NCBI GenBank assembly: GCA_009691385.1
Contig: SICQ01000002.1
Location: 1-47,324, forward strand
DNA: 47,324 bases
Origin: Candidatus Ryanbacteria bacterium
Lineage (GTDB): Bacteria > Patescibacteriota > Minisyncoccia > Ryanbacterales > GWA2-47-10b
Direction of reading: 5' to 3'
The notes below the pieces were generated by a model. It made no database searches and was not told the DNA's origin. It worked only from the letters and a program-made list of their open reading frames with translations. The position numbers were made by a program, and so were the translations under genes. Below are positions 3,518 through 40,931 of the stretch, one piece after another; position 1 is the stretch's first letter; every line of letters starts with the position of its first letter.

Positions 3518-3520
3518 TAT

Positions 3521-6116: not shown

Positions 6117-6182
6117 GCATCCAGAATAGAGAAATATTGGAAAAATGACAACGGAATGCTAGTATGGTGGAGAATCATATTT

Positions 6183-6266
6183 GCCGCGGTGGCGGAATTG
6201 GCATACGCGCACGACTCAAAATCGTGTGTCCTCACGGGCGTGTGGGTTCGACTCCCACCCGCGGCA
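6183..6266 (+). tRNA. tRNA-Leu (anticodon CAA), type II with long variable arm
   Basis: GCCGCGG acceptor pairs with CCGCGGC. D-arm GCGGAATTGGCATACGCGC. Anticodon stem CACGA/TCGTG with loop CTCAAAA. Long variable arm. T-arm TGGGTTCGACTCCCA. Discriminator A; CCA not encoded. Near-identical layout to bacterial tRNA-Leu. Confidence 0.9.
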
Positions 6267-6281
6267 CAGTATAATAAAATA

Positions 6282-7127: not shown

Positions 7128-7168
7128 GTCTTGCATAAATCATCAGAGTTTCGTACGCTAGCGGCAGA

Positions 7169-7861: not shown

Positions 7862-7863
7862 TC

Positions 7864-7888
7864 ATCCCGCATCTGCGGGATTTTTTAT
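7864..7888 (+). terminator. intrinsic terminator after the PRTase gene
   Basis: ATCCCGC-atct-GCGGGAT followed by TTTTTTAT. Overlaps the folD stop region. Confidence 0.6.
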
Positions 7889-8709
7889 TTCTCCAAGAAA
7901 GTTACAAGATTTTGAAACACCAGCGCTACGGTAAGCGGCCCTACCCCACCCTTGAGTGGCGTCATGTGCGATGCTTTTTTTGATACCGATTCTTGATCGA
8001 CATCACCTACCAATACACCGCCATCTTCCGATGTACCTACATCAACGACGACAACGCCGTCCTTGACCATCTCGCCTGTAATGACGCGCGGCTTGCCAAG
8101 ACCTGAAATAACAATATCGGCATCTTTGAGCATCTCATGATTTACCTGATCGGCGCCGTGAAGCACGGTGACGACGGCGCCCGCCCGCATCGCCCACATC
8201 GCTACCGGTTGACCTACGAGGCGCCCGGCACCCACCACAACTATTTTTTTACCTGATACTTCAACGCCATAATGCTCGAGTAATAATTTTACCGCCCCTG
8301 CTACCGGTGGCATGATGTGTGACTTGCCAACGGACACATTGCCTACCGCGCGCGCCGAGAGTACATCAACATCTTTTTCAGGAATAATCGCGTTGAGTAT
8401 CGCTTGCGCATCAATCTGCCCTGGTAGTGGAAGCTGTACGATCACGCCACTATTGCGTGGCTCGTGCACAATATCACGCATGCGCTCGCGTAAATTATTT
8501 GTTGAAATATCTACCGGCATCTCATATCGCTGTGTCTCAATGCCAACACTTTTTGCAAATACCTCTTTGAGCTCAACAAATTTTTTAGACGGCGCTGACT
8601 CGCCCACCATCACGATAGCAAGACGCGGCTTTGGTGATATACCCGATACGCGAGATGCGATATCATTTTTTATTTTTTCAAGTATTGGCTTTGCCTCTAA
8701 AAAAATCAT
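7885..8709 (-). CDS. folD: bifunctional methylenetetrahydrofolate dehydrogenase/cyclohydrolase
   Basis: 274 aa. GESAPSKKFV, VIVQLPLP, VVVGAGRLVGQPVA, TPLKGGVGPLTVA. Confidence 0.9.
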   Translation of the reverse strand: MIFLEAKPILEKIKNDIASRVSGISPKPRLAIVMVGESAPSKKFVELKEVFAKSVGIETQRYEMPVDISTNNLRERMRDIVHEPRNSGVIVQLPLPGQIDAQAILNAIIPEKDVDVLSARAVGNVSVGKSHIMPPVAGAVKLLLEHYGVEVSGKKIVVVGAGRLVGQPVAMWAMRAGAVVTVLHGADQVNHEMLKDADIVISGLGKPRVITGEMVKDGVVVVDVGTSEDGGVLVGDVDQESVSKKASHMTPLKGGVGPLTVALVFQNLVTFLEK

Positions 8710-13201: not shown

Positions 13202-13984
13202 TCACCCGTGTGGGGAGGCGCGCGAGGCATGGCGAGCGAGCATGCGCTCGATCTGGGCACGCGTCTCGGTCATGAGTGATAGGACCGTGTCCCATTCGTG
13301 GACGATGATGGGCTTGCCAAATTCAACCGTGACATGTACGCCGGGCGTGACGCGCATGATTGAATTGGGTGGCAATACGCGGAACGCGCCTGAGATTGCC
13401 ATAGGTATGATCGGCAACTTGGTATCGAGCGCAATATGAAACGCACCCTTTTTGAAGGGGCCCATCTCGCCAGTTCGTGTACGTGTTCCCTCCACGAAGA
13501 TGACGAGACGCGCGTTGGGCCATACCTTGATGCCCGCATGAATAGCGGCAACGGCCTGCGCGTTGTTGGCACGATCGACAATGATCTGACCGCCGTGAAG
13601 CGCGGCCTTGCCGAACACGGGAAGGCGGGAAATCTCGCGCTTCACAATGAATCGCCCACCCTCAACGATGCCGACTGCAAGTGGGATATCGAACGCGCTT
13701 TCATGATTTGCGGCGACGATGTAGGCACGCGCGTCATCAAGATGTTCGCGACCAATCACCTCAACTCGCGCGCGGGTTAGGTTGATGATGGGCTGCGCCC
13801 AAAATCGGCGCGCGACCCGCCAGATATAGCGGCCTCGCACCTTATCACTCGCCCTCGACTGATAACGCGCAAGATTGCGTACGGCACCGCATCCACGCCG
13901 ATGAAACCACGAGATGTAGGTTGTCAGAAGTACCGCGCGCACGAGTATAGACAGGCGCCAGAAAAAAAGTTGGAACCCCTTCAT
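13202..13984 (-). CDS. plsC: 1-acyl-sn-glycerol-3-phosphate acyltransferase (PlsC family), GC-rich
   Basis: 260 aa. Acyltransferase HX4D box (ANHESAFD), FVEGTRTRTG, PIIPMAISG. GGAGAT SD before ATG 13984. Confidence 0.8.
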   Translation of the reverse strand: MKGFQLFFWRLSILVRAVLLTTYISWFHRRGCGAVRNLARYQSRASDKVRGRYIWRVARRFWAQPIINLTRARVEVIGREHLDDARAYIVAANHESAFDIPLAVGIVEGGRFIVKREISRLPVFGKAALHGGQIIVDRANNAQAVAAIHAGIKVWPNARLVIFVEGTRTRTGEMGPFKKGAFHIALDTKLPIIPMAISGAFRVLPPNSIMRVTPGVHVTVEFGKPIIVHEWDTVLSLMTETRAQIERMLARHASRASPHG

Positions 13985-22980: not shown

Positions 22981-25900
22981 TTAGACCTTTTCGACAGAGA
23001 CGATGCTGGGGCCTTTGTTGGTATCGGCGACTTCTAAGCGCTTGGCACGCGTGCCTTTTTTGATAGCCGCGAGCGCTGTGGGCGAGAAAGTACCTGTAAT
23101 AATGAGTGATACGGTATCGAGTGGCTGAAGACCCGCCTTTTTACGAGCATCTTGCGCGAAACGGATAAGCTCGCGCACCTCGCCTTCTTCTTTGAGTTCA
23201 GGGGAAATGACCATGTCGAGTGCCGCGTCTTCTGTTAGTTTTTTATTTACTACAATGCCTTTGACATTGAGCTCTTCTTTTAAAATATCAAGGAGTGACG
23301 CGTCGCGCACAGTGATACCCTTTACCATCAAAGATGCGAGCGGCTGGCGTACTTTGATACCGGCGCGCGCACGAAGCTCAAGCCCACGCGCGGCAAGCGC
23401 GCGCACTTCGTCCATGCCGCTCACAAGTGCTTTGTTATATGCCTGCTTTTTATGCCAATCTTCCAGATGCACGCTCTCGCGTTTACCACCTGCCGCGCGA
23501 TATATGATCTCTGCGGTAAATGGCACAAAGGGCGCTGCGAGTACTGCGGTCTGCAAAAGCGTTTTGCGTAAAATCTCAACACCCTCGCCTGAGCGCATCC
23601 GTTCGCGCGACCGGCGCACATACCAGCGCGAGATATCATTGCCCACGAAATCTTCGATAAGGCGCGCCGCACCCACCACATCATACGCATCCATGCGACG
23701 CGCGACCTCGGCGCTCACCTGAGCAGATTTCGCCTCCATCCACAAATCAAGGGTATTTTTGCGTGATGTTTTTTTGGCGACTGGTTTATACATCTCATAG
23801 AAATTGAGTGTATTGAGAAAAAGATCGATAAATGTTCGTTTTGATTTTTCAAGATCAGAAGTATCAAAGAGCTTGGAATCACCTGGCTGATTGATAGTAA
23901 AGAAATACCAACGCACCGCATCGGCGCCATATTTTTCAAAAAGATCCATGGGTTCTACCACATTGCCTTTTGATTTCGACATTTTCTTTCCTTCTGCATC
24001 CAACAAGTGCCCGAGTGAAATAACATTTTTATACGGCGCTTTTTTGCCCAAAAGCGTCGAGACTGCGAGCAGCGTATAAAACCACCCTCGTGTCTGATCG
24101 ATCGCCTCAGAGATAAAGTCAGCGGGGTAGGCCGTGCCCTTGTCGATACGGGCTTTATTTTCAAACGGATAGTGTTGTGCAGCAAATGGCATCGCGCCCG
24201 AATCAAACCATACATCAGCGACCTCGGGCGTGCGATCCATCTTTGTAAGACACCCCGAACACATCACGGGAAAATTATCGATAAACGGTTTATGAAGATC
24301 CGTCTCGCCAAACTCATTGCGCGGCACCGCCACGGGTACGATGCGATGCACATCAGCATTTTTGAGATATTTGGCCTGTGAAAACTCATCTGGCTGTTGT
24401 GTGCCACGCATGATCGCCTCTAAAAACCAGAGCGGATCTCCATGACCTACGATCAAAATCTTTTTCTTTTTGTGCAATGTCTCGAGTCTTTGAAAAAATC
24501 GATAACTGCGCTTTTTGACATCAGCCCACGACTCGCCACCCGGAAACGGGTGTTTGAGGATTTCTTCGGCGGTATGCTTTTTCCAAATGTCTTCGACAGC
24601 ATCGCCCTCATAATCTCCTGGATTGTGCTCGCGCAAGTCAGCATCGTACAAGACCGGCACGCGAAGTTCGCGCGCTAAAATCGCCGCCGTCTCGCGCGTA
24701 CGGGTGAGGTCTGATGAAATAATCAATTGAATACCTGATTTTTTGAGAACCGCTGCTGCTTTTTTTACCTCCGTCTTACCGCGTGGCAAAAGCCCATACG
24801 AATTATTGAGTTTGGCGGTTGCGATACCGAGTAAATTATTTTTCGCAAACCCGTGACGCATCAAGAAATAAGTGTTGGTAGATTTTGGTGCGCGCTCTGA
24901 TATCTCGGCGATTGAGCCAAAAACATCCCTGCGATTACATTCTTTGCATGACCATACCGGTAGCGGCGTGCCCCAATAGCGCTCTCGAGAAAATGCCCAG
25001 TCTTTGTCCTCGCGAAGCCATTGGCCAAAGCGACCATCACGCAAATGCGCCGGATGCCAGTTGATCGATTTGTTTGCTTCTACCATCTTGGGACGCACCG
25101 CACTGACCTTCACCCACCATGACTTGCGTACACGATAGATAAGCGGCGTATCGCATCGCCAGCAAAATGGATAATCATGCTCGTAGAGCGCCTCGCGAAA
25201 TAACAGCCCTTTTTGTATCAAATCTTTTACTACAAACGGATCAGCTTCTTTGACAAACATCCCTTCCCACTGCGGTACTGCTTTGGTAAATTTACCTGCG
25301 TCATCAACCGTAACAAAAGTCGGCAATCCTTCGCGCTTGCCTACCTTTAAGTCATCGTCGCCGAACGCGGGCGCGATATGCACGATACCGGTACCCTCTT
25401 GGTCAGTGATAAAAGTGCCTGCAACCACACGATACGGAATATCAGGCGCGGGATAGGGCGGATCATACTCAAGACCCAAAAGCTTTGAGCCCGGCTCGCG
25501 CCAGAGAGGTTCGAGCCCGGGGAAGAGTTTTGCCGCAAGCGACCCGAGTACGATAAGCTGCTCGCCCCGGTCATCAATAGTCACATATTCAAGCTCGGGG
25601 TGTACGGCTGCTGCCACATTGGCCGGTAGTGTCCACGGCGTTGTAGTCCATACCAAAAGTGATGCTCTGCGTGTTTTGAGACGAAAGCGCACAAATACTG
25701 ATTGATCTTTTACTTTTTTATATCCTTGCGCGAGCTCGTGAGACGACAATGCGGTACCGCACCGCGCGCACCACGGCACCACCTTGTCATCCTGATACAG
25801 CAATTTGCGCGCATTAAACTCTTTGACGATATGCCAAAGTGATTCAATGTATGAATTTTTATAGGTGACATAGGGATTTTTGGTATCAATCCAATACCCC

Positions 25901-26280
25901 ATGCGCTCGGTGACTTTCTCCCACTGGCTTGTATACAGCCAGACGGATTCTTTACATTTGCGATTAAACGGTTCGATACCGTACGCCTCGATATCTTGTT
26001 TCAATTTAAAACCGAGTGCTTTCTCAACAGCGATCTCGACAGGCAAACCATGGGTGTCCCAACCCGCACGGCGCTCAACCAAAAAACCTTGCATAGTCTT
26101 ATAGCGCGCGATGACATCTTTGAACGCACGGGCTTCTACATGATGCAACCCCGGCATGCCGTTTGCCGTAGGTGGCCCCTCAAAAAAAACAAAGCGCTTT
26201 GCCTGAGCGCGTTGCTTAATGCTTTTTTCAAAAATATTTTTCTGGGTCCAGAATCCAAGGACGCCACGCTCATCTCGCAT
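22981..26280 (-). CDS. ileS: isoleucyl-tRNA synthetase with an inserted histidine-phosphatase-like domain
   Basis: 1099 aa. HIGH-type (PPTANGMPGLHHV), CP1 editing (TTTPWTLPAN), KMSKS (KKMSKSKGN). An RHG/His_Phos-like insertion at aa ~465-660 is described in findings. Confidence 0.95.
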   Translation of the reverse strand: MRDERGVLGFWTQKNIFEKSIKQRAQAKRFVFFEGPPTANGMPGLHHVEARAFKDVIARYKTMQGFLVERRAGWDTHGLPVEIAVEKALGFKLKQDIEAYGIEPFNRKCKESVWLYTSQWEKVTERMGYWIDTKNPYVTYKNSYIESLWHIVKEFNARKLLYQDDKVVPWCARCGTALSSHELAQGYKKVKDQSVFVRFRLKTRRASLLVWTTTPWTLPANVAAAVHPELEYVTIDDRGEQLIVLGSLAAKLFPGLEPLWREPGSKLLGLEYDPPYPAPDIPYRVVAGTFITDQEGTGIVHIAPAFGDDDLKVGKREGLPTFVTVDDAGKFTKAVPQWEGMFVKEADPFVVKDLIQKGLLFREALYEHDYPFCWRCDTPLIYRVRKSWWVKVSAVRPKMVEANKSINWHPAHLRDGRFGQWLREDKDWAFSRERYWGTPLPVWSCKECNRRDVFGSIAEISERAPKSTNTYFLMRHGFAKNNLLGIATAKLNNSYGLLPRGKTEVKKAAAVLKKSGIQLIISSDLTRTRETAAILARELRVPVLYDADLREHNPGDYEGDAVEDIWKKHTAEEILKHPFPGGESWADVKKRSYRFFQRLETLHKKKKILIVGHGDPLWFLEAIMRGTQQPDEFSQAKYLKNADVHRIVPVAVPRNEFGETDLHKPFIDNFPVMCSGCLTKMDRTPEVADVWFDSGAMPFAAQHYPFENKARIDKGTAYPADFISEAIDQTRGWFYTLLAVSTLLGKKAPYKNVISLGHLLDAEGKKMSKSKGNVVEPMDLFEKYGADAVRWYFFTINQPGDSKLFDTSDLEKSKRTFIDLFLNTLNFYEMYKPVAKKTSRKNTLDLWMEAKSAQVSAEVARRMDAYDVVGAARLIEDFVGNDISRWYVRRSRERMRSGEGVEILRKTLLQTAVLAAPFVPFTAEIIYRAAGGKRESVHLEDWHKKQAYNKALVSGMDEVRALAARGLELRARAGIKVRQPLASLMVKGITVRDASLLDILKEELNVKGIVVNKKLTEDAALDMVISPELKEEGEVRELIRFAQDARKKAGLQPLDTVSLIITGTFSPTALAAIKKGTRAKRLEVADTNKGPSIVSVEKV

Positions 26281-26388: not shown

Positions 26389-27597
26389 ATGTACTGGAGA
26401 AAGAACTGTGGAATCGTAGGATCTCTAACCTTCACACTCGCGTGCTTCGCCGCGACAGCCGCGGCGAAGCAACCGACCAAACAGGAAATCGTCGAGCACT
26501 ATGCGAAAGCGGTCGTGCTCGTCGAGCGCTTGACCGTCGGCGAAAGCGTGAAAGTCCAAGGGTCGGGCGTATTCTACAGCCCCACCCGCATCGTCACCAA
26601 CGCCCATGTGATCGGCGACATCCCCGAAAACCGCGAGACAGTCGAACGCGTGTACATGGATACGGATCTCTCACGCGCCGTGTTCTGGGTGACCTTTCTA
26701 GGCAAGAAGTACAAGGCACGCCTTGTAGGACGCGACCCCGATCTTGACCTTGCAATCCTCGAGATCGACCACGCTGTAGACGGCGTGCGCCCTGCGCGGT
26801 TCGGTGACTCCGGCAAGTGCGCGGCCGGACACGAAGTCTATGTGTTCGGCAACCCGCTCGGCATGGAAAACTCTGTGACTTCGGGTATCGTCTCGGGCAA
26901 GGAGCGGCGCATTGGCATGCTCAGCTACGAAGAGCTCATCCAGACAGACGCGCCTATCAATCCTGGTAATTCAGGTGGTGCACTCGTCTCGATGGAGACC
27001 GGCGAGCTGCTTGGTATCCCCAACTCCAAGATTCCCTTCGCTGACAATATGGGCTTTGCCGTACCGATCAATCTGTTTCGCGACATCGAGCCACAGCTCC
27101 AAGGCACCATCAAACATAGCTGGCTCGGCATCTCATTCCCCGGACCCAAGTTCACCGATTCTGAAGGTTTTCAGGGATTGAAAGCAATCCACGAGCTCAC
27201 GGGTGCCAATCACCTTGAGGTACTCGACGGTATCAGACGCGAGGTGTTTGATAAAGACAAAGGCGGGGTACTCGTCACCAATGTGATGCGGGCGCATGTC
27301 GATAAGCTCTACGCGATACTCGCCTCCGATGGCGAGAACGCCGCCGCTGAAGCGACTGCCCGTACGCCACCCGCGCTCAAAGCAGGATTCGAGCTCGGTG
27401 ATGTCATCACCAAATTCGGAGAGTTTGAGATCAAGCGCGATCTCGACCTCATCCGCGCCATCTTCCGCAGTAAACCTCGCGAAACACTACCCGTGCGCAT
27501 AGTACGTTTCGACAGTACAGACAAGCGTACCGAAGTCGTACTCATGGTCACCCCCATCGTCCGCAATCCAGACGGCGTGGCGGGTGGCTTCTACTAA
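26389..27597 (+). CDS. secreted trypsin-like serine protease, HtrA/DegP-like with C-terminal PDZ-like region (GC-rich)
   Basis: 402 aa. Signal peptide; catalytic triad contexts TNAHV, DLAILEI, GNSGGALV. AAGGAGG SD at 26377-26383. Confidence 0.85.
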   Translation: MYWRKNCGIVGSLTFTLACFAATAAAKQPTKQEIVEHYAKAVVLVERLTVGESVKVQGSGVFYSPTRIVTNAHVIGDIPENRETVERVYMDTDLSRAVFWVTFLGKKYKARLVGRDPDLDLAILEIDHAVDGVRPARFGDSGKCAAGHEVYVFGNPLGMENSVTSGIVSGKERRIGMLSYEELIQTDAPINPGNSGGALVSMETGELLGIPNSKIPFADNMGFAVPINLFRDIEPQLQGTIKHSWLGISFPGPKFTDSEGFQGLKAIHELTGANHLEVLDGIRREVFDKDKGGVLVTNVMRAHVDKLYAILASDGENAAAEATARTPPALKAGFELGDVITKFGEFEIKRDLDLIRAIFRSKPRETLPVRIVRFDSTDKRTEVVLMVTPIVRNPDGVAGGFY

Positions 27598-30597: not shown

Positions 30598-30952
30598 GGG
30601 AGTGACAGGCCTCGACGGGGTCTCGACTCTTTGAAAATCAGGCAAGAGCAGGTGTGGTCACCTCTTTCAAAAATGCCACACGCCAATAAGTGCAAACTTA
30701 TTTAACCGCCAACCGGCAATGGCTTTTGCCTAAGCCGTAGGCGTTTCTCTGGCCACTATGCGCCAGAGCATCGGTCCGCAACCGCTGAGTGCGTGGAATG
30801 CCGGTGTTATAATCCTCAGCTAGTGCGCATCATGCTCGATACACGCGCGCGAAACTAATCGAGCAAACTCTCTGGCTTCGTGCTTGAGTACGCCTGTATA
30901 AATTTTTATTGAGAAGAACTTTCGGACGGCGGTTCGATTCCGCCCACTTCCA
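30598..30952 (+). ncRNA. ssrA: tmRNA (ssrA), one-piece
   Basis: 5' GGGAGTGACAGGCCTCGACGGGG pairs with the 3' CACTTCC acceptor (one G-U). T-arm GGCGGTTCGATTCCGCC. Discriminator A; CCA not fully encoded. Candidate tag frame 30692-30733. Adjacent to smpB. Confidence 0.85.
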
Positions 30953-30961
30953 CAAAAAAAT

Positions 30962-30989
30962 AAAAAGCCTGATGTAGATCAGGCTTTTT
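30962..30989 (+). terminator. intrinsic terminator after ssrA
   Basis: AAAAAGCCTGAT-gtag-ATCAGGCTTTTT. Confidence 0.65.
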
Positions 30990-31080
30990 GTTTGACAAAA
31001 TGTTATATTTAGTATAAAGTATTTCCCAGAGTTCACATGTGAGAGTGGCTTTCGATCACCCTCTCACCAACCATGAGGTG

Positions 31081-31287
31081 ATGATGGCACGATGCAGTAA
31101 ATGCGAAGCATCCGGCAGGGAGCACAAACAGGGCTTCTGCCCTCCGAAGCCGGGTGACCGCGCCCGCGCGCGCAAGGCCTTCCTGGCGCGGGGCAGCGCC
31201 CCGCCCGCCGAGACCTCGGACATTCCGGTCCGCGGCGCGCCCATCCCGGGAACGGGCAGCCCCAAGGAGGCGCCTGCCGCCGGATAA
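31081..31287 (+). CDS. small basic, Pro/Ala/Gly-rich hypothetical protein (extremely GC-rich)
   Basis: ATG 31081 preceded by GAGG. This frame has G/C at most third positions and is followed by a strong + strand terminator. All six frames are open here, so the frame choice is tentative. CSKC...C near the N-terminus. Confidence 0.35.
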   Translation: MMARCSKCEASGREHKQGFCPPKPGDRARARKAFLARGSAPPAETSDIPVRGAPIPGTGSPKEAPAAG

Positions 31288-31294
31288 GACCCAA

Positions 31295-31331
31295 GCCCCG
31301 CTCGAGCACATGCTCGAGCGGGGCATTTTTT
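31295..31331 (+). terminator. intrinsic terminator
   Basis: 13-bp perfect stem GCCCCGCTCGAGC-acat-GCTCGAGCGGGGC followed by ATTTTTT. Confidence 0.65.
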
Positions 31332-31346
31332 ATATATAAAGATTTT

Positions 31347-31700
31347 CTACCCCTTCTTTTTGAACTTTACCGAAAACACGGGTTCATACTGGTTTGAGTG
31401 TTCATCGGTAATCTCCACCTGCTCCCCTTTCATCATGTGCGTGAGAGCTATGTCGCTGAGCATTTCTTGATCACTCTTGAGATTATTTTTCATACTCTCG
31501 AGCTTTGCGAACTCTGCGGCTGATTCGCGCTTTATCTTTTGTTCGATCGATACTTTTTTGTCACGGATTTTGTTGTATTCGTGCACAATCTCGCGATACC
31601 CTGTAGCATTTTCGAGTGCGTCTTTGTACGAACCCTTCAAATCACGCTGTTCACGCTTGATGTCTTGGATGCGGTTAAATATTTCTTGAGCACTTTTCAT
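31347..31700 (-). CDS. hypothetical coiled-coil protein (AT-rich)
   Basis: ATG 31700 preceded by AAGGTGG with a 5-nt spacer. 117 aa: charged heptad-like N-terminal 85 aa, then a short beta-like C-terminus (GEQVEITDEHSNQYEPVFSVKFKKKG). No family recognised. Confidence 0.6.
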   Translation of the reverse strand: MKSAQEIFNRIQDIKREQRDLKGSYKDALENATGYREIVHEYNKIRDKKVSIEQKIKRESAAEFAKLESMKNNLKSDQEMLSDIALTHMMKGEQVEITDEHSNQYEPVFSVKFKKKG

Positions 31701-31846
31701 AATGCCCACCTTACACTACAACTACCCTCCGTGTCAGCATTGGATAACTTTTTGATTTGCTCAAAAGGTACAGGGTACGATACGATGCGAAAAGAACCTC
31801 GCCGACCCTTTGAAATCTCGTGGAGAACGAAAGGAGAAGTGTATAC

Positions 31847-32902
31847 ATGCAAACCCAGCAAGCAGGAGGAGATGCGTATCGTGCACTAGTCAGTGAAATT
31901 GTGCGTATGGGCAAGGTTGATCGGAGCATCGTGATGCGCACCGCGCATGTGGGATCGGGTGAAGCATACCAGCTCATCGACCGTATGCAGGAAGATGGCA
32001 TCATCAGCAAACCCGACCGAAAGACCAGCGAGCGACGCGTGCTCATCACGCCCGAAGAGCTCGCCCGCCAAGCTCGCGTGAGTGGAGCGCCACGCGAGCT
32101 TGATGCCGAGACACGCACGATACTTGAACTACTCACACCGACACTTGCTGAACGCGAAGAGCTCTCAGTCGATAGCATCCGTACTGAGTTCGCTGTAGAG
32201 GCCGATGTCGCACGCGATGTCATTGCCGAGCTCGCGCGACAACACAAGACTGGCGAGCCCGACAAACACGGCACCGCCATGGTACTCATCACCACCGGTG
32301 GCAACGACCGCGCGAAAGCGCCGAAGCCGATCTTGGCACGCGCGCCGGTCAAAGACCCGCCAACCGGCATTCGCGGTAGCATCGGTATGCGGCCCCCACT
32401 TCTCCGAGGAGAAGTGCCGCCGCCTACGCCCGCACCGGCAGCAACAACTATTGCGCGAAAATGTGTGTGGCCTGACTGCGAACAAACCAAAATCCAATCG
32501 CGCAATCTCTGTCAAAAACACTACATGGTCGCCTACATGCATTGGAAAAAAATTGGCGGCGGCCAGCGCACTTCCAAGCCCTTCCCGATACCCGCAGAAG
32601 TGATCAAGGCGAAGAGCGAAGGAGTGGCGATACCTACGCCACCACCCGCCCCCGAGAAGCGTGCGAGCATCCCCGCACTACCATCTCCGCCGGCAGCACC
32701 GACAGACGAGCGGCCGTGGCAGACCCGAGTCGCAACGGCGCAGCAGCGCGCTGACAGAGTAGAATCTGAAAACATGGGCCTTCGTAACACCATCGCGCGG
32801 TTCGAGCGTGAAGCACGCGAGCACGAGACCGCGTGGAAAACGCTCGCAGATTTTATCGAGCGTCAGCCGACTCTCCGCCGCCTTCTTCACCTCCAATCAT
32901 AG
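31847..32902 (+). CDS. putative DNA-binding protein: two winged-helix modules (first FtsK-gamma-like), Cys3His zinc knuckle, C-terminal coiled coil (GC-rich)
   Basis: ATG 31847 with AAGGAGA SD (31831-31837). YRALVSEIVRMGKVDRSIVMRTAHVGSGEAYQLIDRMQEDGIISKPDRKTSERRVLI resembles the FtsK gamma wHTH. CVWPDC-x11-CQKHY resembles the (G/N)LCxxHY zinc motif. Pro-rich linkers. Confidence 0.7.
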   Translation: MQTQQAGGDAYRALVSEIVRMGKVDRSIVMRTAHVGSGEAYQLIDRMQEDGIISKPDRKTSERRVLITPEELARQARVSGAPRELDAETRTILELLTPTLAEREELSVDSIRTEFAVEADVARDVIAELARQHKTGEPDKHGTAMVLITTGGNDRAKAPKPILARAPVKDPPTGIRGSIGMRPPLLRGEVPPPTPAPAATTIARKCVWPDCEQTKIQSRNLCQKHYMVAYMHWKKIGGGQRTSKPFPIPAEVIKAKSEGVAIPTPPPAPEKRASIPALPSPPAAPTDERPWQTRVATAQQRADRVESENMGLRNTIARFEREAREHETAWKTLADFIERQPTLRRLLHLQS

Positions 32903-32910
32903 TCCCCCGA

Positions 32911-32946
32911 GCCTTCGGCGTGCACATGCGCCGAAGGCTTTTTTTA
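32911..32946 (+). terminator. intrinsic terminator
   Basis: GCCTTCGGCG-tgcacatg-CGCCGAAGGC followed by TTTTTTTA. Confidence 0.65.
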
Positions 32947-32957
32947 TAGATACATCC

Positions 32958-32986
32958 TTGAAAAAGCCTTCCTTGCGGGCTATAAA
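32958..32986 (+). promoter_or_regulatory. sigma70-like promoter for the 33013 gene
   Basis: TTGAAA (32958-32963), 17-nt spacer, TATAAA (32981-32986). Confidence 0.4.
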
Positions 32987-33012
32987 GAGACAGACACAAC
33001 ACGGAGGTGCTC

Positions 33013-33300
33013 ATGGATCTTGATCGAGAGTGTAACTATGACCACCGGGAGTTCCGCACAACCGAGTACATCCCAGTCACCGCAAGTCCCTGCATGCTCT
33101 TTTCCAATGACAGCGGCGTCAATGCCGGACTCATCGCGCGATTCACTGGCGACCGCTGGGCGCAGTTCCTCGCCTCGATCCTCGCGATCGAAGGGGTGGG
33201 CGCTATCGAAGTCCACCAATTCATGGTGATTGTCTACAAACGCGCCGACATCCCATGGGACTACGTAAGCCCCGCTGTCGAGAAGCTACTCGGTACCTAG
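33013..33300 (+). CDS. hypothetical protein, Nfu_N-like pattern (weak)
   Basis: ATG 33013 five nt after GGAGG. 95 aa. The C-terminal half (LASILAIEGVGAIEVHQFMVIVYKRADIPWDYVSPAVEKLL) follows the GV..V....fitV.K....W....p pattern of the Nfu/NifU N-terminal domain. Confidence 0.55.
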   Translation: MDLDRECNYDHREFRTTEYIPVTASPCMLFSNDSGVNAGLIARFTGDRWAQFLASILAIEGVGAIEVHQFMVIVYKRADIPWDYVSPAVEKLLGT

Positions 33301-33320
33301 CGGATAGGCGCGCAGCATGA

Positions 33321-33360
33321 GGCGTCGTCGGAATCATCCGACGACGCCATTTTCTTTTTT
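33321..33360 (+). terminator. intrinsic terminator
   Basis: 12-bp perfect stem GGCGTCGTCGGA-atca-TCCGACGACGCC followed by ATTTTCTTTTTT. Confidence 0.7.
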
Positions 33361-33378: not shown

Positions 33379-33537
33379 TTAACGCTGCGAGCGTGATACT
33401 TCAGCCGTCGCTATTTCGTTCATCTCACTATCAAGCTCGAGGATGGTGTACTGAATATACCCCCACAAGCTAAACCCGACAATAACGATGAGCGAGACGG
33501 CCCAGAAAAACCACCTATCGCGAATCATACTATCCAT
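33379..33537 (-). CDS. possible 52-aa single-TM peptide
   Basis: Hand translation: MDSMIRDRWFFWAVSLIVIVGFSLWGYIQYTILELDSEMNEIATAEVSRSQR. Below the ORF-track length cutoff; no clear SD. Confidence 0.3.
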   Translation of the reverse strand: MDSMIRDRWFFWAVSLIVIVGFSLWGYIQYTILELDSEMNEIATAEVSRSQR

Positions 33538-33582: not shown

Positions 33583-33611
33583 TTGACTTTCGGGCTGAAT
33601 ATCCTTACACT
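33583..33611 (+). promoter_or_regulatory. sigma70-like promoter of the infC-rpmI-rplT operon
   Basis: TTGACT (33583-33588), 17-nt spacer, TACACT (33606-33611). Confidence 0.4.
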
Positions 33612-33620
33612 ATAGGGACA

Positions 33621-34223
33621 TTGGTACCACGAATACGCATCAATCAAGCGATTTCCGCCCCTGAGCTCCGAGTGATCGGCGCTACGGGTGATAATGTCGG
33701 TATCAAAACAAAAGACGAGGCGCTCGCACTTGCACGCGAAGCTGGCCTCGATCTTATCGAGATTTCGCCTACGGCAAAACCGCCGGTAGCGCGCATCATG
33801 GACTGGGGTAAATACCAGTACCAACAGGAAAAGGAAGCTCGCAAGGCAAAAAAGAAATCGCACGAAGTTGAGATCAAAGGCATTCGTGTACGCCTCGGTA
33901 CCGGCTCCCATGATCTCGTCATGAAAGCCAAGCAAGCAGAAAAGTTTTTGAAAGCGGGTCACCGCCTCCAGATACAGCTCACCTTGCGCGGCCGAGAAAA
34001 ATATATTGATAAAAACTTTGTCCACGACAGGCTCACCAAACTTCTTGAGGCGATCACCGTCCCCCACAAGATTGCGGAAAAGCCCAAGAAAGGTCCCCGC
34101 GGACTTATTATGACTATAGAACCTGAACACCATGGCAAAAACAAACAAAGCAGTCCTGCGCCGAGTGCGAGTAACCAAAAACGGGAAAGTACTCAAGCGC
34201 CGACCGCATCAAAACCACTTTAG
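33621..34223 (+). CDS. infC: translation initiation factor IF-3
   Basis: RINQAISAPELRVIG N-domain; C-domain EIKGIRVRLGTGSHDLVMKAKQAEKFLKAGHRLQIQLTLRGRE. Non-ATG start (TTG 33621; ATA 33633 and ATC 33639 are also in frame). The low-complexity tail overlaps rpmI. Confidence 0.85.
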   Translation: MVPRIRINQAISAPELRVIGATGDNVGIKTKDEALALAREAGLDLIEISPTAKPPVARIMDWGKYQYQQEKEARKAKKKSHEVEIKGIRVRLGTGSHDLVMKAKQAEKFLKAGHRLQIQLTLRGREKYIDKNFVHDRLTKLLEAITVPHKIAEKPKKGPRGLIMTIEPEHHGKNKQSSPAPSASNQKRESTQAPTASKPL

Positions 34224-34329: not shown

Positions 34330-34674
34330 ATGACACGCGTAAAACGAGGCGTTACCGCCCTCAAGCGCCGCCGCTCGGTCCTCAAGCAAACCAAAGGTTT
34401 CCGCTGGCAGCGCAGTAAAAAAGAACGAGCCGCCAAAGAAGCGCTCCTCCATGCCTATACCCACTCATTCCAAGACAGACGCAAGAAAAAGCGCGTTATG
34501 CGCAAGGGTTGGAATGTGAAGATTAGCGCGGCCGCAAAGCTTTCCGGCACTTCTTACAGTAAGCTCATGGGAGCGCTCAAAAAGGCTGATATCAAGATTG
34601 ATCGCAAGATCCTCTCGACACTCGCCGAGCAGTACCCCAAGGCATTCGAAAAAGTCCTCGCTGAGGCAAAGTAA
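34330..34674 (+). CDS. rplT: 50S ribosomal protein L20
   Basis: 114 aa, MTRVKRGVTALKRRRSVLKQTKGFRW... canonical L20 start. Confidence 0.95.
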   Translation: MTRVKRGVTALKRRRSVLKQTKGFRWQRSKKERAAKEALLHAYTHSFQDRRKKKRVMRKGWNVKISAAAKLSGTSYSKLMGALKKADIKIDRKILSTLAEQYPKAFEKVLAEAK

Positions 34675-34681
34675 ACCAAAC

Positions 34682-34706
34682 AAAAAATCCCCGTACGGGG
34701 ATTTTT
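34682..34706. terminator. bidirectional intrinsic terminator
   Basis: AAAAATCCCC-gtac-GGGGATTTTT between convergent rplT and the 34715 gene. Confidence 0.65.
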
Positions 34707-34714
34707 TGTTTCAT

Positions 34715-36076
34715 CTAAAATGCCAGTTGCAGCTTCAGTTCGCCAAGGCTTTTGTAGCGCTCATCGCCACTTTCACGAAGCTTTTCGCCTGTAGAATAAA
34801 TAGTTTTTGTACTTGCATCATACTTGAGTGCCGCGCCATCAAAAGGATCTTCTGGCACCTTAGACAAGTATTTTGGTATCAGTTCTGTGAGCGAAGCTGG
34901 GTATACTTTTGTATCGTTCTTAAACGCCTTTATCGCCATGGCGACCTGTGTGCTTGCTACAAGATAATCTTCTCGACAACGCTTGTATTGCGCATTACCA
35001 AAGGCTGCCGCAACAACATCATGAAGTGTTTTCCCAACAACATTCTCAGTTATGTATTGTTGAGCAAGAATCGTCCAACTATCTCCATAAGGCACTGATG
35101 GCTTTATTTCTTGCAATTCTAAAGCCCCGCAATGCTTTTTTGAATCACGCACTTGAGCTCGGGCTAAATCAGCAAAGAGTAGTTTTGTTTCGTTAGGGCG
35201 AAAGTGATAAGAGTCTACAGCTCCACCAAATTGCTCACCGAAATTTTCTTTAAATGCCTTTACCTTTTCAGGATCTTGGGAAGTCATTGCATTAATAGCC
35301 CACACGGTCATACCCCAATATTCAGCCTTAAATGCAGTCGCCATTGCTTCCTCGTTATCATAAAACCGCTCTAACCGTGCAGTATATGTCTTTAAACTCT
35401 GGCTATCAATCTCTGACTCTTGCAAAATTATCTGCATTGTTCTAAGTGCCCTACTTTTTATAGCAAAACCGACCAAATATCCAATAAAATGAGACTGGGA
35501 ATTTTGCATTTTCTGCCCTATCGAAGCAGCGCGAAAAGCCTCTTCAAGCGCTTCGACTATTTTCCCTTGTCTATACAAAGCTAGAGACTTCACGGCGCTC
35601 ACATCGGCCATGTTACGAAATGTATTAAGTGGCGGCAAAATAACATTTGGCGAGAACTGCGCTTGGTCTGCAACATTTGGATCCTGATAATAAGATTTTT
35701 GAGCGGCACTTTCAAAATACATGAGTGCCTCAGCATTTTTTTGCAAAATATCAGCCGCCGCGCGTTCATCCCATAGTTTTCCATCAACAATCTCCCCGAG
35801 CTTCGACGGACCTTGATCAATAACCTTGCTCATCTTTATCAAATCAAAATAGGCATTTTGATCATCCGGGATGCTTATCTTTTGAAGACGCAAATCTGAG
35901 TCATCAATAGGCGCGATGTCTCTGGAAAACAAACCGAGAATGCTGGGTAAAAAATACCCAAAAGCACCGAGGAAAACGACGACTGCAAGTATAACCCACG
36001 GCCACCTACGCCTTTTTCTGTGTGGTGGATCTATTAGTTGAGGAATAGCAGGCTGGACCTGCTGACTTTCATCCAT
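34715..36076 (-). CDS. hypothetical N-terminally anchored, mostly alpha-helical exported protein
   Basis: 453 aa. Basic stretch plus TM (RKRRRWPWVILAVVVFLGAFGYFL). The C-terminus (LIPKYLSKVPEDPFDG) resembles the tail motif of pseudopilin-like proteins. No enzymatic motif seen. Confidence 0.7.
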   Translation of the reverse strand: MDESQQVQPAIPQLIDPPHRKRRRWPWVILAVVVFLGAFGYFLPSILGLFSRDIAPIDDSDLRLQKISIPDDQNAYFDLIKMSKVIDQGPSKLGEIVDGKLWDERAAADILQKNAEALMYFESAAQKSYYQDPNVADQAQFSPNVILPPLNTFRNMADVSAVKSLALYRQGKIVEALEEAFRAASIGQKMQNSQSHFIGYLVGFAIKSRALRTMQIILQESEIDSQSLKTYTARLERFYDNEEAMATAFKAEYWGMTVWAINAMTSQDPEKVKAFKENFGEQFGGAVDSYHFRPNETKLLFADLARAQVRDSKKHCGALELQEIKPSVPYGDSWTILAQQYITENVVGKTLHDVVAAAFGNAQYKRCREDYLVASTQVAMAIKAFKNDTKVYPASLTELIPKYLSKVPEDPFDGAALKYDASTKTIYSTGEKLRESGDERYKSLGELKLQLAF

Positions 36077-36115
36077 AGTAGAATTATATCTCTAAACTTG
36101 CTGAAAATAAACAAG

Positions 36116-36146
36116 AAAAAGAGCCGTTCGCTGACGCGAACGGCTC
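36116..36146 (-). terminator. intrinsic terminator of the 36956-36157 operon
   Basis: On the minus strand: GAGCCGTTCGC-gtca-GCGAACGGCTC followed by TTTTT. Confidence 0.65.
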
Positions 36147-36156
36147 TGAACTGCGG

Positions 36157-36429
36157 TCAATCGACCTTGCAGTCTACCTGACCTGACTTGAAGAGATTGC
36201 ACGGGTAGGTGCGCCGACCGTTGATGACCGAGGCGATGAGCTCCTCGTTGCTCGTGCGCCCCTTATGCTCTCCGCAGTCGAAGTTGAGCTGAAGCCCCGT
36301 GGCGTCTACGAGAGTGCACTCGCCCTCCCAAATCTTCACCGAATCGAGGATTTCCTTGTGGAACCCGACTTGGATGAAGGCGACAAGCACGATCACTATC
36401 CACATCAGAACGACGCGAGACCACTTCAT
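36157..36429 (-). CDS. small signal-anchored/secreted 4-Cys protein (GC-rich)
   Basis: ATG 36429 with AAGGAG 7 nt upstream; ATGA overlap with the upstream gene. 90 aa: MKWSRVVLMWIVIVLVAFIQVGF, then a soluble part with 4 Cys (EGECTLV, FDCGEH, YPCNLF, VDCKVD). Confidence 0.6.
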   Translation of the reverse strand: MKWSRVVLMWIVIVLVAFIQVGFHKEILDSVKIWEGECTLVDATGLQLNFDCGEHKGRTSNEELIASVINGRRTYPCNLFKSGQVDCKVD

Positions 36430-36956
36430 GATACATCTCCTTCCGACGAAGACTGTGCCCCCACGAAGGTGAGCTGCGGGCAGATCGCCTTCTTCTTGGC
36501 GATTGCTCGCTCTGCAAGGAGTTCGCCGAAATTCCATCCTCGACGCGCAAGATTCGGTATTCTCGTGCGAATTACCGCCTCACCACTTCTATGGAACACC
36601 CATTCGAAGAAGCCCCAGACAGTGACCATGGCGACTATGGCCAGAACAACACTGATCACGACCACGCCGACCATGAAAATCGTGTTGGTGTAGCCGACGA
36701 TGCCAAATAGCTTGATCGGTAGGAAGACAGCTGCCCACACCAAGCCCAACGCCGTCGCCGCGTAGGCGGCGAGGATGAGCGGGGTGTAGACGAGGATGAC
36801 CCGCATATAGTGGCACAGATTCGTGCCACCCTTGAATCGGCTCTCGTAGCTCTTCATCTTCCATTCCCATAACTCCTCCCGCCCCGTGAACATGTCCACA
36901 AGCAGGAGACCGAAATGAAAAAGGTAGAAGTGCCAACTTCCTCTCGTGACGACCAT
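36426..36956 (-). CDS. polytopic membrane protein, unknown family (GC-rich)
   Basis: ATG 36956 with GGAGG 6 nt upstream. 176 aa, about 3-4 TM. Conserved-looking NLCHYMRVILV near TM2 and a C-terminal KKKAICPQLTF motif. Confidence 0.65.
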   Translation of the reverse strand: MVVTRGSWHFYLFHFGLLLVDMFTGREELWEWKMKSYESRFKGGTNLCHYMRVILVYTPLILAAYAATALGLVWAAVFLPIKLFGIVGYTNTIFMVGVVVISVVLAIVAMVTVWGFFEWVFHRSGEAVIRTRIPNLARRGWNFGELLAERAIAKKKAICPQLTFVGAQSSSEGDVS

Positions 36957-38288: not shown

Positions 38289-40012
38289 AAGAGATGACGC
38301 TTTTGTTTTGGGGTCGCCAAAAACTTCTGTAACGCCGGCAATGCAAGCGTGTTAAGAACATGATTTTTGGGAAGACCTGCGCGTCGCGCTTGCCCTATAC
38401 CATACTCCAAATACGAGAGCTCCGCAAGAGAGTGAGCGTCCGTATCAATGCTAAACATCGCACCCGCATCTACTCCGCGTTTTATATGATCATCTTTCAA
38501 ATCAAGTCGCCACGGATGCGCGTCGATCTCAAGCACCGTACCAGTTGCGACAGCGTGCACAATGATGCGATCAATATCAACCGCGTACGGATCTCTTTTT
38601 TTAAGCACGCGACCGGTCGGATGAAATAAAATATCGACATGCGGATTGGACATCGCGCGCATGATGCGCTCGGTCTGTTCATCTTCTGATAAGTTAAAAT
38701 GCGAATGAACAGCCGCGCCCACAATATCAAGCTCTGATAACACTTCGTCAGAGATATCGAGCGTGCCGTCTTTCATAATATTTACTTCGGCACTTTTTAA
38801 AATTTTGATGCCTGATATTTTTTTACCAAGCGCATCAATCTCACGCATTTGTTTGCGTAATTTTTTTTCGTCTGATCCGCCCGTCATCGCAAGACTTTTG
38901 GTATGATCAGTGATCGCGATATATTCGTGACCAAGTCGCTTGGCCTCGCGCACCATCGCCTCTAGTGAACCTGTGCCATCAGTCCAATCAGTTTGTGTTT
39001 GGAAGTCTCCGCGTAAATCTGTAAAACCTACGAGCTCACTATATTTTTTTTCAAGCTCATCTCTCCCTTCGCGTAGTTCAGGTGGCGGCATGATGACTCC
39101 GAGTGCTTTGTATACTTCTTCTTCGGTCGCCCCTGCGATTATTTTCGTACCACGATACAGGCCATATTCGTTGAGCTTTAATTTGCGTTTGAGTGCGAGC
39201 GAGCGCAGTATGACATTGTGATCTTTCGAACCTGTAAAATAAATAAGTGCCGCACCAAAAGATTTTTTGGGTAGTACACGCACATCGACATCAATGCCGT
39301 CTTTAATACGCACTGAACTTTTGGTCTCGCCATGTGCAATAATGTGCGCGACATCTTCGCGTGATACAAATGCATTCATCACCGCATCCGCATCAATAGC
39401 TTCTACCAAAATATCAATATCACCTGATGTCTCGCGCCATCGTCTGATCGATCCTGCAATCTCTACGCGAGAGACGCCTTTTACTTTGCGTAAGTCATCG
39501 GCGATGCGCCGCGCAATCGGCAACGCTTCACCCAATAAAAATCTTCCGCGCGATGATTCGAAAAACTCAATGCCTTTTAAAATTTTCTGTTCAGACTTGA
39601 GACCGAACTTTTCGAGCTTTTGGATCTTGCCCGCGAGCGCCGCCTTTTTGAGACTTGCTACATCTTTTACTTTTAATTTCTCAAAGAGTGTTTTTATCGC
39701 CTTGGGACCAACACCTTCAATGCTTCGCAACTCTTCCATGTTGACCGGCATTTTTTTGCGCATGGCACCCAACTCGCGCACGCGACCAGTCTTGATATAT
39801 TCTTCGATGGTTTGTGCGATTCCCTTGCCGATACCGGGGATTTCTTCAAGTGCTTTGCGTCCGGCGCTCTCATATATCGCTCGCACATCACTATCGAGCG
39901 TCGAGAGCGTCTCGGCTACTTTTTCGTACGCGCGCGCTTTAAACGGTTCATCAAACACCGTAAAGTATTCTGCGATGGCAAAGAGTATATCTGAAATGTC
40001 CTTATTCTTCAT
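38285..40012 (-). CDS. polX: family X DNA polymerase with C-terminal PHP domain (PolX)
   Basis: 575 aa. HhH motifs (IPGIGKGIAQ, IEGVGPKAIK), polymerase core (GSIRRWRETSGDIDILV), PHP (HTKSLAMTGG, AHPWRLD, DTDAH). Confidence 0.9.
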   Translation of the reverse strand: MKNKDISDILFAIAEYFTVFDEPFKARAYEKVAETLSTLDSDVRAIYESAGRKALEEIPGIGKGIAQTIEEYIKTGRVRELGAMRKKMPVNMEELRSIEGVGPKAIKTLFEKLKVKDVASLKKAALAGKIQKLEKFGLKSEQKILKGIEFFESSRGRFLLGEALPIARRIADDLRKVKGVSRVEIAGSIRRWRETSGDIDILVEAIDADAVMNAFVSREDVAHIIAHGETKSSVRIKDGIDVDVRVLPKKSFGAALIYFTGSKDHNVILRSLALKRKLKLNEYGLYRGTKIIAGATEEEVYKALGVIMPPPELREGRDELEKKYSELVGFTDLRGDFQTQTDWTDGTGSLEAMVREAKRLGHEYIAITDHTKSLAMTGGSDEKKLRKQMREIDALGKKISGIKILKSAEVNIMKDGTLDISDEVLSELDIVGAAVHSHFNLSEDEQTERIMRAMSNPHVDILFHPTGRVLKKRDPYAVDIDRIIVHAVATGTVLEIDAHPWRLDLKDDHIKRGVDAGAMFSIDTDAHSLAELSYLEYGIGQARRAGLPKNHVLNTLALPALQKFLATPKQKRHLL

Positions 40013-40245
40013 AGTGTATAAGCTTAGTATAGCGCAGAGAAAAGTTTTCCACAGCGAAATGTATCATAAAAACTTTTTACACTCTATACTTATATCAGAA
40101 CTTAAGAGCACCGAAATTCAGAGAAGAGCGAGGTTCGCGTAATGGCCAACAACCGGCACTGACACTCATGTGTCACCTACACACCTCCCCCTTCCTTGCA
40201 GTTCCCCTGCTCCACGCACCTTTCACAATTTTCTCTTCACACAAT

Positions 40246-40280
40246 GGCCTGCCCTTCACGGACAGGCCTAAACTTTTTTA
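40246..40280 (+). terminator. terminator-like hairpin on the + strand in a gene-free region
   Basis: GGCCTG-cccttcacgga-CAGGCC followed by TAAACTTTTTTAT. No annotated + strand gene precedes it. Confidence 0.3.
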
Positions 40281-40304
40281 TACCAAGATTTTATTTTTTA
40301 AATA

Positions 40305-40931
40305 CTAAAAGAGAGAAACTTGTGGTGCATCTTCTTCGGAAGATTTTTTTGTTTGAGCAACTTCCGGTTTTATTACTTCAACCTCGCCCGATACGATTGC
40401 GGGGAGCTTGGCAAATGTTTCTTTAAATTGGTTGAGTACTGTAGTACCGCGCAGAGCTGCTGCCGGATGAAACATCGGTACGATTTTTTTATCATCCACA
40501 ATAAATGTTTTTCCTTGGTCGCGAGAAATCTTCGCATCAGGCAAAAAATAATTCATCGCGAATCTGCCGAGAGGCACAATAATGCGTGGGCTAATGATTT
40601 CTATTTGTCGCGCAAGATAGGGTTTATATACCTCAATCTCTTCGGGTAGTGGATCACGATTTTCTGGCGGTCGGCGTTTTACAATATTGGTTATGTATAC
40701 TTGCTCTCGGTGCCACCCGATACTTTTAATACACTCGGTGAGCAACTCTCCTCCCCTCCCTACAAACGGGCGGCCTAACCTATCTTCATGAAACCCTGGT
40801 GCCTCGCCAATAAATAAAACTTCTGCGTCCGCATTCCCTTCACCAAACACCAAGCGAGATTCTTGGAGTGGGAGTGAGCTGTCGCCAATCATCTCTTGCT
40901 CGAGACCTGCGAGCAATTCTTTTTTGGTCAT
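40305..40931 (-). CDS. uracil-DNA glycosylase, family 4-like (no Fe-S cysteines seen)
   Basis: 208 aa. GEAPGFHEDRLGRPFVGRGG, HPAAALR motifs. Confidence 0.85.
   Translation of the reverse strand: MTKKELLAGLEQEMIGDSSLPLQESRLVFGEGNADAEVLFIGEAPGFHEDRLGRPFVGRGGELLTECIKSIGWHREQVYITNIVKRRPPENRDPLPEEIEVYKPYLARQIEIISPRIIVPLGRFAMNYFLPDAKISRDQGKTFIVDDKKIVPMFHPAAALRGTTVLNQFKETFAKLPAIVSGEVEVIKPEVAQTKKSSEEDAPQVSLF

Follow-up and report, generated by a model that had tools for sequence, protein, structure and literature searches.

The ssrA-infC interval of a Candidatus Ryanbacteria genome as a probable native hotspot of single-gene units set in a conserved backbone

The genome of Candidatus Ryanbacteria bacterium (assembly GCA_009691385.1) contains, on contig SICQ01000002.1, a group of small open reading frames (ORFs) located between the transfer-messenger RNA (tmRNA) gene ssrA and infC. 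An original prediction, made from the letters of the sequence, had described this region (30953-33360) as a single, compositionally foreign islet without integrase, inserted directly 3' of ssrA. The stretch of 47,324 nucleotides (nt) that was analysed is referred to as the window, all position numbers are those of the whole window, and the ORFs between ssrA and infC are denoted O1 to O5. The left anchor of the interval is ssrA itself (30598-30953, + strand), identified by ARAGORN and by its match to Rfam RF00023 (89.5 bits), and its tag, ANLFNRQPAMAFA, is identical in the related loci L001-L004 and L072 described below. A hairpin flanked by A- and T-tracts lies directly 3' of ssrA (30958-30993) and constitutes the ssrA terminator in a bidirectional form. 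The right anchor is infC (33621-34223, + strand), preceded by the promoter-like sequence TTGACT-17-TACACT (33583-33611).

Three of the ORFs, O1, O3 and O4, lie on the + strand as single-gene units, each with its own Shine-Dalgarno (SD) sequence and intrinsic terminator. The O1 unit (30992-31331) comprises a consensus-like promoter box, TTGACA-17-TAAAGT (30992-31020), a hairpin in the 5' untranslated region (5'UTR; 31039-31067), an ORF for a basic CCHC zinc-knuckle protein of 68 amino acids (aa; 31081-31287), and a terminator consisting of a hairpin and a T-tract (31295-31331). The O3 unit (31756-32970), which behaves as an indel, contains a 351-aa ORF (31847-32902) and a hairpin/T-tract terminator (32909-32946), and the O4 unit (33013-33360) contains an ORF for a 95-aa small alpha/beta protein (33013-33300) and a terminator of the same kind (33321-33360). 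The two remaining ORFs are encoded on the - strand: O2 (31347-31700), a 117-aa coiled-coil protein gene convergent with ssrA and separated from the divergent O3 by a 146-bp intergenic region (31701-31846), and O5 (33379-33537), a 52-aa ORF with a single transmembrane segment situated beside the infC promoter. The original prediction had listed four ORFs, all with SD-like sites upstream, and a hairpin/T-tract terminator behind each of the three on the + strand; the four ORFs and their SD-like sites are present and all three terminators were located by scan (at 31295-31324, 32909-32940 and 33321-33348), while a fifth ORF, O5, had been missed.

Loci anchored on SmpB were collected from 69 genomes, all of them Patescibacteria and mostly Paceibacteria/Parcubacteria; loci of relatives are designated by L numbers and homologous proteins by P numbers. 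The closest SmpB proteins are those of L072 (= L079, a Hainich groundwater contig; 98% identity), L001 ('Patescibacteria group bacterium'; 95%) and L002 ('Cand. Ryanbacteria'; 91%). Comparison of these loci revealed the conserved backbone smpB-ssrA-O2-O5-infC-rpmI-rplT. At the amino acid level, O2 is 96%, 93%, 90%, 72% and 74% identical to its counterparts in L072, L001, L002, L004 and L005, respectively, and O5, whose position is unchanged, shows 87% identity in L072, 75% in L001 and 39% in L004. In the table of identities, the conservation of O2 and O5 tracks that of SmpB and InfC; therefore, O2, the AT-rich gene that had been taken to interrupt an islet, is a gene of the backbone. It is found downstream of ssrA and convergent with it in L072, L001, L002, L004 and L005 and was not found in L003; its C-terminus is invariant (...EHSNQYEPVFSVKFKKK), and within the clade it is conserved as strongly as SmpB. 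Profiles of Pfam, NCBIfam and PADLOC gave no family match above threshold for O2.

The DNA between the backbone genes varies from one relative to the next. Slot 1, between ssrA and O2, holds O1 in the window and in L072, an M19 dipeptidase gene with a 161-aa ORF in L001, and, in L004, membrane ORFs plus one ORF assigned putatively to the GIY-YIG type by eye, with no profile search. In L002 it is empty, and the hairpin that takes the position of the ssrA terminator there, which differs in sequence, abuts the O2 stop codon. Slot 2, between O2 and O5, is occupied by O3 and O4 in the window, by O4 and, in place of O3, a filler of about 440 bp (with a hairpin and, on the minus strand, a 52-aa ORF) in L072, and by an O3 homologue, a CopC-domain protein gene and two further ORFs in L001; in L004 it consists of about 400 bp and is essentially empty. 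The DNA between O2 and O3 is kept with L001 up to the ATG codon of O3 (blastn 31348-31837, 84%) and with L072 only up to 31755. The synteny comparison from smpB through ssrA to infC that had accompanied the original prediction thus does reveal an interval that differs between close relatives, and the units differ separately: neither L002 nor L001 has the O1 unit, and the closest relative, L072, has no O3. This independent presence and absence of O1, O3 and O4 shows that the interval is not one insertion, and the image of a single interrupted islet had to be abandoned. Presence of the same genes at the same locus throughout the lineage had been named as the mark of an ancestral state, and such conservation was found in part, O1 and O4 occupying the same sites in L072 and O3 the same site in L001.

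The hand counts of G+C content (GC) on which the islet had been based were exact: 96/120 for 31141-31260, 39/60 for 32281-32340, 24/60 for the backbone line 1441-1500, and 29/60 and 24/60 for 31381-31440 and 31441-31500 within the coiled-coil gene. The backbone line of 40% GC was, however, unrepresentative, since GC averages 0.495 over the window and 0.551 over the 2.4-kb interval (about +3 standard deviations, sd, for 2.4-kb windows), a contrast of about 6 points and not of 25-40. The interval contains the highest GC of the window at every scale calculated, namely 120 bp (peak of 0.808 at 31144, then two of 0.725 and 0.70 within O3), 300 bp (0.683), 1 kb (0.609) and 2.4 kb (0.556). For each protein, an expected GC was computed from its amino acids with backbone codon usage and compared with the observed value, giving observed/expected values of 0.73/0.63 for O1, 0.60/0.56 for O3 and 0.58/0.50 for O4. 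Amino acid composition covers 0.14 of the GC excess of 0.24 in O1, 0.07 of 0.10 (about 70%) in O3, and none of it in O4. The GC at third codon positions (GC3) is 0.81, 0.61 and 0.71 for O1, O3 and O4, respectively, versus about 0.51 expected (z 5.1, 3.4 and 4.4). The high G+C of the units is thus due partly to protein sequences rich in P, A, G and R and partly to raised GC3. The compositional atypicality of the interval is real and extends beyond amino acid content, but it is not unique to this locus, as other genes of the window are equally deviant in GC3: an HtrA-like gene (26389-27597, z 8.0) and two overlapping ORFs (36157-36537 and 36426-36956, z 4.5 and 5.2), all absent from close relatives, and an acyltransferase gene (13202-13984, z 4.5).

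The O1 protein ends in a C-terminal RGxPxxGTG motif and belongs to a family with members in L003/L074, L005, L075 and L076/L077, whose consensus reads C-x2-C-x(7-10)-H-x4-C-P-P, a basic stretch, and R-G-x-P-[VI]-x-G-[TV]-G (window 31081-31287; L003:15233-15496; L005:19111-19329; L077:5950-6183). The genes of this family stand alone in unrelated genomic contexts, each with an SD sequence and a downstream hairpin, and have a GC3 of 0.60-0.82 in every host examined, where host contigs have a GC of 0.44-0.51. O1 matched nothing in Pfam, the Protein Data Bank (PDB) or Rfam; a PDB sequence search with the O1 family gave 0 matches, four other O1 relatives produced only noise in Pfam, and a word-indexed homology search with O1 returned the query itself only. 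Judged from the loci compared, this previously unnamed family appears to be restricted to Patescibacteria and scattered through the phylum, and its domains suggest a small nucleic-acid-binding zinc protein. Two other identities for O1 were considered and rejected. Folding of three family members against shuffled sequences (z -0.60, -0.88 and +0.42), with no Rfam match near the gathering score, did not favour a structured RNA. Since O1 adjoins ssrA, a rescue factor of the ArfA/BrfA type made from a non-stop mRNA was also considered; intact members of the family have their stop codons before the terminator and most are not located beside ssrA.

At the DNA level, the O1 unit (30954-31340) is 96-98% identical to L072:5874-6262 and to the independent assembly L078. 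In L072/L078 a 2-bp insertion shifts the frame after approximately residue 43, the conserved C-terminal motif is lost, and the frameshifted ORF reads through the terminator hairpin, a state that could have arisen through inactivation after a recent import or could reflect some constraint. The hairpin in the O1 5'UTR (31039-31067) has a 9-bp stem, GTGAGAGTGG...CCCTCTCAC, lies just upstream of the SD sequence and is identical in L072. An element 'TTCCCAGA' downstream of the O1 promoter is also present at the family member of L003.

In the AlphaFold model, O3 exhibits two winged helix-turn-helix (wHTH) domains (residues ~6-65 and ~87-132). A disordered linker rich in P and A (135-202) joins them to a two-helix region that contains the zinc knuckle (203-257), and another disordered linker separates this region from a C-terminal helix of about 60 residues, which forms a coiled coil (289-350); about half of the protein is predicted to be disordered. 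The zinc knuckle, C-x4-C-x10-C-x2-H, is situated at 206-225 and accompanied by the conserved segment HWKKIGGGQRTSKPFP. Residues 10-68 match the Pfam family FtsK_gamma (PF09397) with an E-value of 2e-6 and 27.8 bits, below the cut-off of 30.6, and Foldseek aligned the first domain (local pLDDT ~80) with the FtsK gamma structures 2VE8/2J5P over 58-61 residues, with a template modelling (TM) score normalised to the target of 0.72-0.87 and a root-mean-square deviation of 1.2-1.9 Å. Residues ~6-65 of O3 thus share the three-helix winged-helix fold of FtsK/SpoIIIE gamma domains, but O3 has no translocase motor, and its gamma-like domain is fused instead to another wHTH, the zinc knuckle and the coiled coil. 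The original prediction had called this set of O3 domains correctly. O3 is therefore predicted to be a DNA-binding and probably dimeric protein, both properties being deduced from its domains, and most likely represents a lineage-specific transcription or nucleoid factor.

Relatives of O3 are very scarce. A PDB sequence search gave 0 matches and a word-indexed homology search returned the query alone; P0003 and P0004 emerged only when 1.84 billion representatives were scanned exhaustively with HMMER. P0003, the gene of L001, was the sole full-length relative, located at the same site and 38-42% identical to O3 depending on the aligner, and P0004 (L082, 139 aa), which consists of the zinc module, was one partial relative. 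The remaining matches were at the domain level, either to wHTH proteins of the gamma type or to proteins in which CxWPxC...GLCxxHY units are repeated. The zinc module of O3 is 71% identical to P0004 of L082, whose SmpB is 69% identical to that of the window, versus 37% identical to the protein of L001, whose SmpB is 95% identical. Moreover, housekeeping proteins of the window and L001 are 75-95% identical, versus 38% for O3. The conflict between the similarity of the zinc module and the species tree points to exchange of O3 sequences among Patescibacteria, not to simple vertical descent, and argues against a donor from outside the phylum. The O3 family itself appears, from these searches, to be confined to Patescibacteria.

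O4 has a single homologue, P0032 (79% identity), at the same site in L072/L078/L079. It matches the Pfam family Nfu_N (PF08712) over residues 49-93 with an E-value of 0.027 and 14.9 bits, below the cut-off of 27, and the top fold match in the PDB of its low-confidence single-sequence model (pLDDT 61) is the Nfu_N protein SAV1430 of S. aureus (2FFM/1PQX; TM-score 0.50-0.56, E 0.014). The E-values of the fold match and of the weak profile match reach only 0.014-0.027, and no C-terminal Fe-S domain of Nfu is encoded near O4. The Nfu_N-like label given in the original prediction is plausible but tentative.

The 3' end of ssrA is a genuine integration target in this clade. In L082, a contig from Logan SRR11567540 with an SmpB 69% identical to that of the window, a 4.56-kb element is located at the exact ssrA 3' end (3322-7941). 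Its large serine recombinase gene (517 aa, reverse strand) overlaps the last 60 nt of ssrA and is followed by a Gp49/HTH_3 pair and small ORFs, and the far boundary of the element (~7941) is marked by a 10/12-nt copy of the ssrA end, after which the flank matches the post-ssrA flank of L001. The statement in the original prediction that tmRNA 3' ends serve as integration sites is thus borne out within the clade, but it does not extend to the window, whose interval shows no homology to the L082 element and in which no ORF of at least 35 aa is matched by the L082 recombinase. In agreement with the original prediction, Pfam, PHROG and NCBIfam profiles detected no integrase or recombinase, whether in the interval or elsewhere in the window, and the window has no second copy of the ssrA 3' end, a 23-mer searched at up to 3 mismatches matching ssrA itself only. 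In a relaxed search for partial repeats, 13-mer matches occurred at chance level and none coincided with a unit boundary. A 13-mer similarity before infC, considered as a relic attR, corresponds to the conserved -35 region of infC. It was likewise considered whether P0004 is carried as cargo by the L082 element, in which case O3 would derive from such an element; this was rejected after attR had been placed upstream of P0004, which lies outside it, in host DNA.

In view of the slots, homologues and composition described above, we propose that the ssrA-infC interval is probably a native flexible-gene hotspot, in which homologous recombination within conserved flanks drives the turnover of single-gene units. 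In this proposal, the conserved backbone frames at least two slots, filled in the window by three autonomous single-gene units that are gained, lost and replaced independently of one another. Other Patescibacteria would most likely supply the DNA, which would recombine homologously within the conserved flanks, site-specific integration apparently not being the route. The raised GC3 of the units is a trait shared with other strain-specific genes of the genome. DprA is encoded at 573-1442, which makes recombination of taken-up DNA plausible. The backbone, the separate distribution of the units, their homologues within the phylum, the two sources of the GC excess and the domain arrangement of O3 are shown directly by the data, whereas the recombination mechanism, like all biochemical roles proposed here, is inferred.

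Several points weigh against the hotspot proposal. No recombination event was seen directly. The divergence between relatives begins exactly at the last base of ssrA, a pattern that site-specific integration would also produce, and serine recombinases leave almost no repeat, so that an old integration would be compatible with the absence of repeats. The block formed by ssrA and O1 is 98-100% identical to that of L072, versus 75-95% for flanking genes, which is consistent with recent import but just as well with constraint. The raised GC3 could stem from GC-biased gene conversion at a recombination hotspot instead of from a donor pool richer in GC. Furthermore, the consensus scan detected no promoter for O3, and the roles assigned to O1 and O3 are drawn entirely from their domains.

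Alternatively, the interval could be a decayed element that entered ssrA site-specifically (for example, by means of a large serine recombinase), lost its integration module and left its cargo behind. The element at the exact ssrA 3' end of L082, the divergence of relatives from the last ssrA base and the atypical composition of the units (which extends to the GC3 z scores and the top GC windows, as is expected for tmRNA-linked islands) are in line with this possibility, as is a parallel with Dehalococcoides, in which islands at ssrA carry the serine recombinase dsiB and old islands have been proposed to become fixed and ameliorated, losing their signatures (PMC3146451). The resemblance to the dsiB islands comprises a plasticity zone downstream of ssrA and, in L082, a reverse-strand large serine recombinase overlapping the ssrA 3' end; in contrast, the window has neither an integration module nor 20-bp direct repeats, and its interval of about 2.6 kb contains single small genes, unlike the multi-kb islands (PMC3146451). 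Similarly, with tRNA- and tmRNA-linked islands of the Islander/TIGER class (PMC4383910) the interval shares its position directly 3' of ssrA, its variability between strains and its atypical composition, but it has no integrase or displaced ssrA fragment, backbone genes are interleaved, and variation occurs one gene at a time. A decayed element is rendered unlikely by the lack of homology to the L082 element, by the location of P0004 outside the attR of the latter, by the presence of O2 and O5 inside the supposed island, where absence of the whole block from relatives would be expected, and by the independent variation of O1, O3 and O4. Moreover, no recombinase fragment, att-like repeat, or PHROG, viral or plasmid match was found in the interval. 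A comparison with integron gene cassettes was also made, the units being short, single-gene, in one orientation and each ended by a palindrome. Neither IntI nor a shared attC-like sequence is present, and a backbone gene on the opposite strand lies between units; the integron-like reading of the three hairpins was rejected, as they are unrelated in sequence and constitute plain intrinsic terminators.

A second alternative dispenses with horizontal origin and regards O1, O3 and O4 as old lineage-specific genes that are intrinsically GC-rich owing to low-complexity protein sequences rich in P, A, G and R and to local effects of codon usage or GC-biased gene conversion, the differences between relatives being produced by loss and fast divergence. 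The share of the GC excess covered by amino acid composition in O1 and O3, the GC-richness of the O1 family in all hosts examined, the synteny of O1 and O4 in L072 and of O3 in L001 with conserved upstream DNA, and the predicted disorder of about half of O3, which would permit fast drift, all speak for such a history. Against it, the GC3 of the units is 3.4-5.1 sd off after correction for amino acids, O4 has no amino acid contribution at all, the zinc module of O3 conflicts with the SmpB tree, and unrelated genes fill the slots in L001 and L004, so we give this explanation only a small chance of being correct.

The ORFs could also form a co-functional module, that is, a regulatory, exclusion or partition-like system in which O3 controls the divergent O2, as the conserved 146-bp region between these two genes, the FtsK-gamma-type DNA-binding domains of O3 and the non-enzymatic content of the interval might suggest. 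This is very improbable, given that L072 has an intact O2 of 96% identity despite lacking both O3 and the O3 promoter region, that O2 stands without O3 in L004 and L005, that O1 relatives occur in unrelated contexts, and that each unit has a separate terminator. Furthermore, no ParA/ParB-like partner is encoded in the interval, and PADLOC defence models gave no matches beyond coiled-coil noise (E > 0.003), with only noise in NCBIfam as well.

Searches outside the phylum bear on the donor suggested in the original prediction, a high-GC actinobacterium. O1, O3 and O4 had no match in viral contigs (IMG/VR), INPHARED or PLSDB, and tblastn with O3 found none among 50,697 phage and 72,556 plasmid records, the zinc module matching no phage even at E = 1. 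All homologues found for O1, O3 and O4 are patescibacterial, an outcome that had been named in advance as contrary to capture from a distant donor, and none of the relatives detected came from actinobacteria, phages or plasmids. Transfer into an episymbiont from its high-GC actinobacterial host or from an actinophage, to which only the style of the zinc knuckle and the domain-level CxWPxC...GLCxxHY matches (some ending in HNH nucleases and without taxonomic assignment) would lend anything, can be set aside as extremely improbable, this groundwater organism belonging to the Parcubacteria group and not to Saccharibacteria and all full-length or near relatives being patescibacterial. The locus is thus an ordinary kind of hypervariable spot with phylum-restricted small genes, and there is no sign of an actinobacterial donor.

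The native hotspot proposal can be extended, as a speculation with a slim prospect of holding in full, to a general mode of exchange. The slots on the ssrA side of these reduced Patescibacteria genomes would exchange units spanning promoter to terminator, one gene at a time and free of integrases; the O3 slot would be hypervariable and swap alleles, with modules crossing between lineages whose core proteins are about 70% identical while the regulatory flank stays fixed; and the O1 family would be a new CCHC class, with genes 15-25 points GC-richer than every host genome. If true, the allele swapping at O3 would point to selection of a diversifying or frequency-dependent kind acting on a protein that recognises DNA, for instance in the control of immunity, exclusion or host interaction. 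Beyond this extension, the analysis illustrates how a GC jump beside a tmRNA gene can mimic a captured island, synteny with five relatives having revealed instead a mosaic of backbone and orphan genes. It also records a hotspot of plasticity on the downstream side of ssrA in Parcubacteria, including one ssrA-targeting serine-recombinase element (L082), and defines in O1 and O3 two uncharacterised protein families that appear restricted to Patescibacteria. The raised GC3 shared by flexible genes bears, in turn, on gene flow or GC-biased conversion in very small genomes.

The rest of the window encodes housekeeping functions, among them DprA, TopA, RelA/SpoT, ParB, several aminoacyl-tRNA synthetases, SmpB, InfC and PolX, and several further observations were made there. 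The trypsin/PDZ (HtrA-like) protease gene at 26389-27597 (GC3 0.68) is missing from L072, L001 and L002 at an otherwise collinear IleRS-PPIase junction and represents a second strain-specific insertion. A strain-specific block with no counterpart in L072 or L001 lies between rplT and a ZIP transporter gene (34715-36956). It comprises a 453-aa ORF that lacks a Pfam match and has an unusually low GC3 of 0.37, and the two overlapping ORFs, at GC3 0.70; a 30-nt palindrome (34665-34724) is situated at its left edge. Between the PolX and UDG genes, the closest relative (L078/L079:14926-15930) carries a 334-aa reverse transcriptase (RVT_1) and small ORFs; the window has a gap of only 293 bp there (about 40012-40305). 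The listed start of the EamA-family ORF at 6156-7127 overlaps tRNA-Leu(CAA) (6183-6267), so that the true start must be downstream of the tRNA. Finally, the 1099-aa IleRS (22981-26280) has a Pfam match to His_Phos_1 (histidine phosphatase) between two tRNA-synt_1 matches, which suggests an inserted domain.

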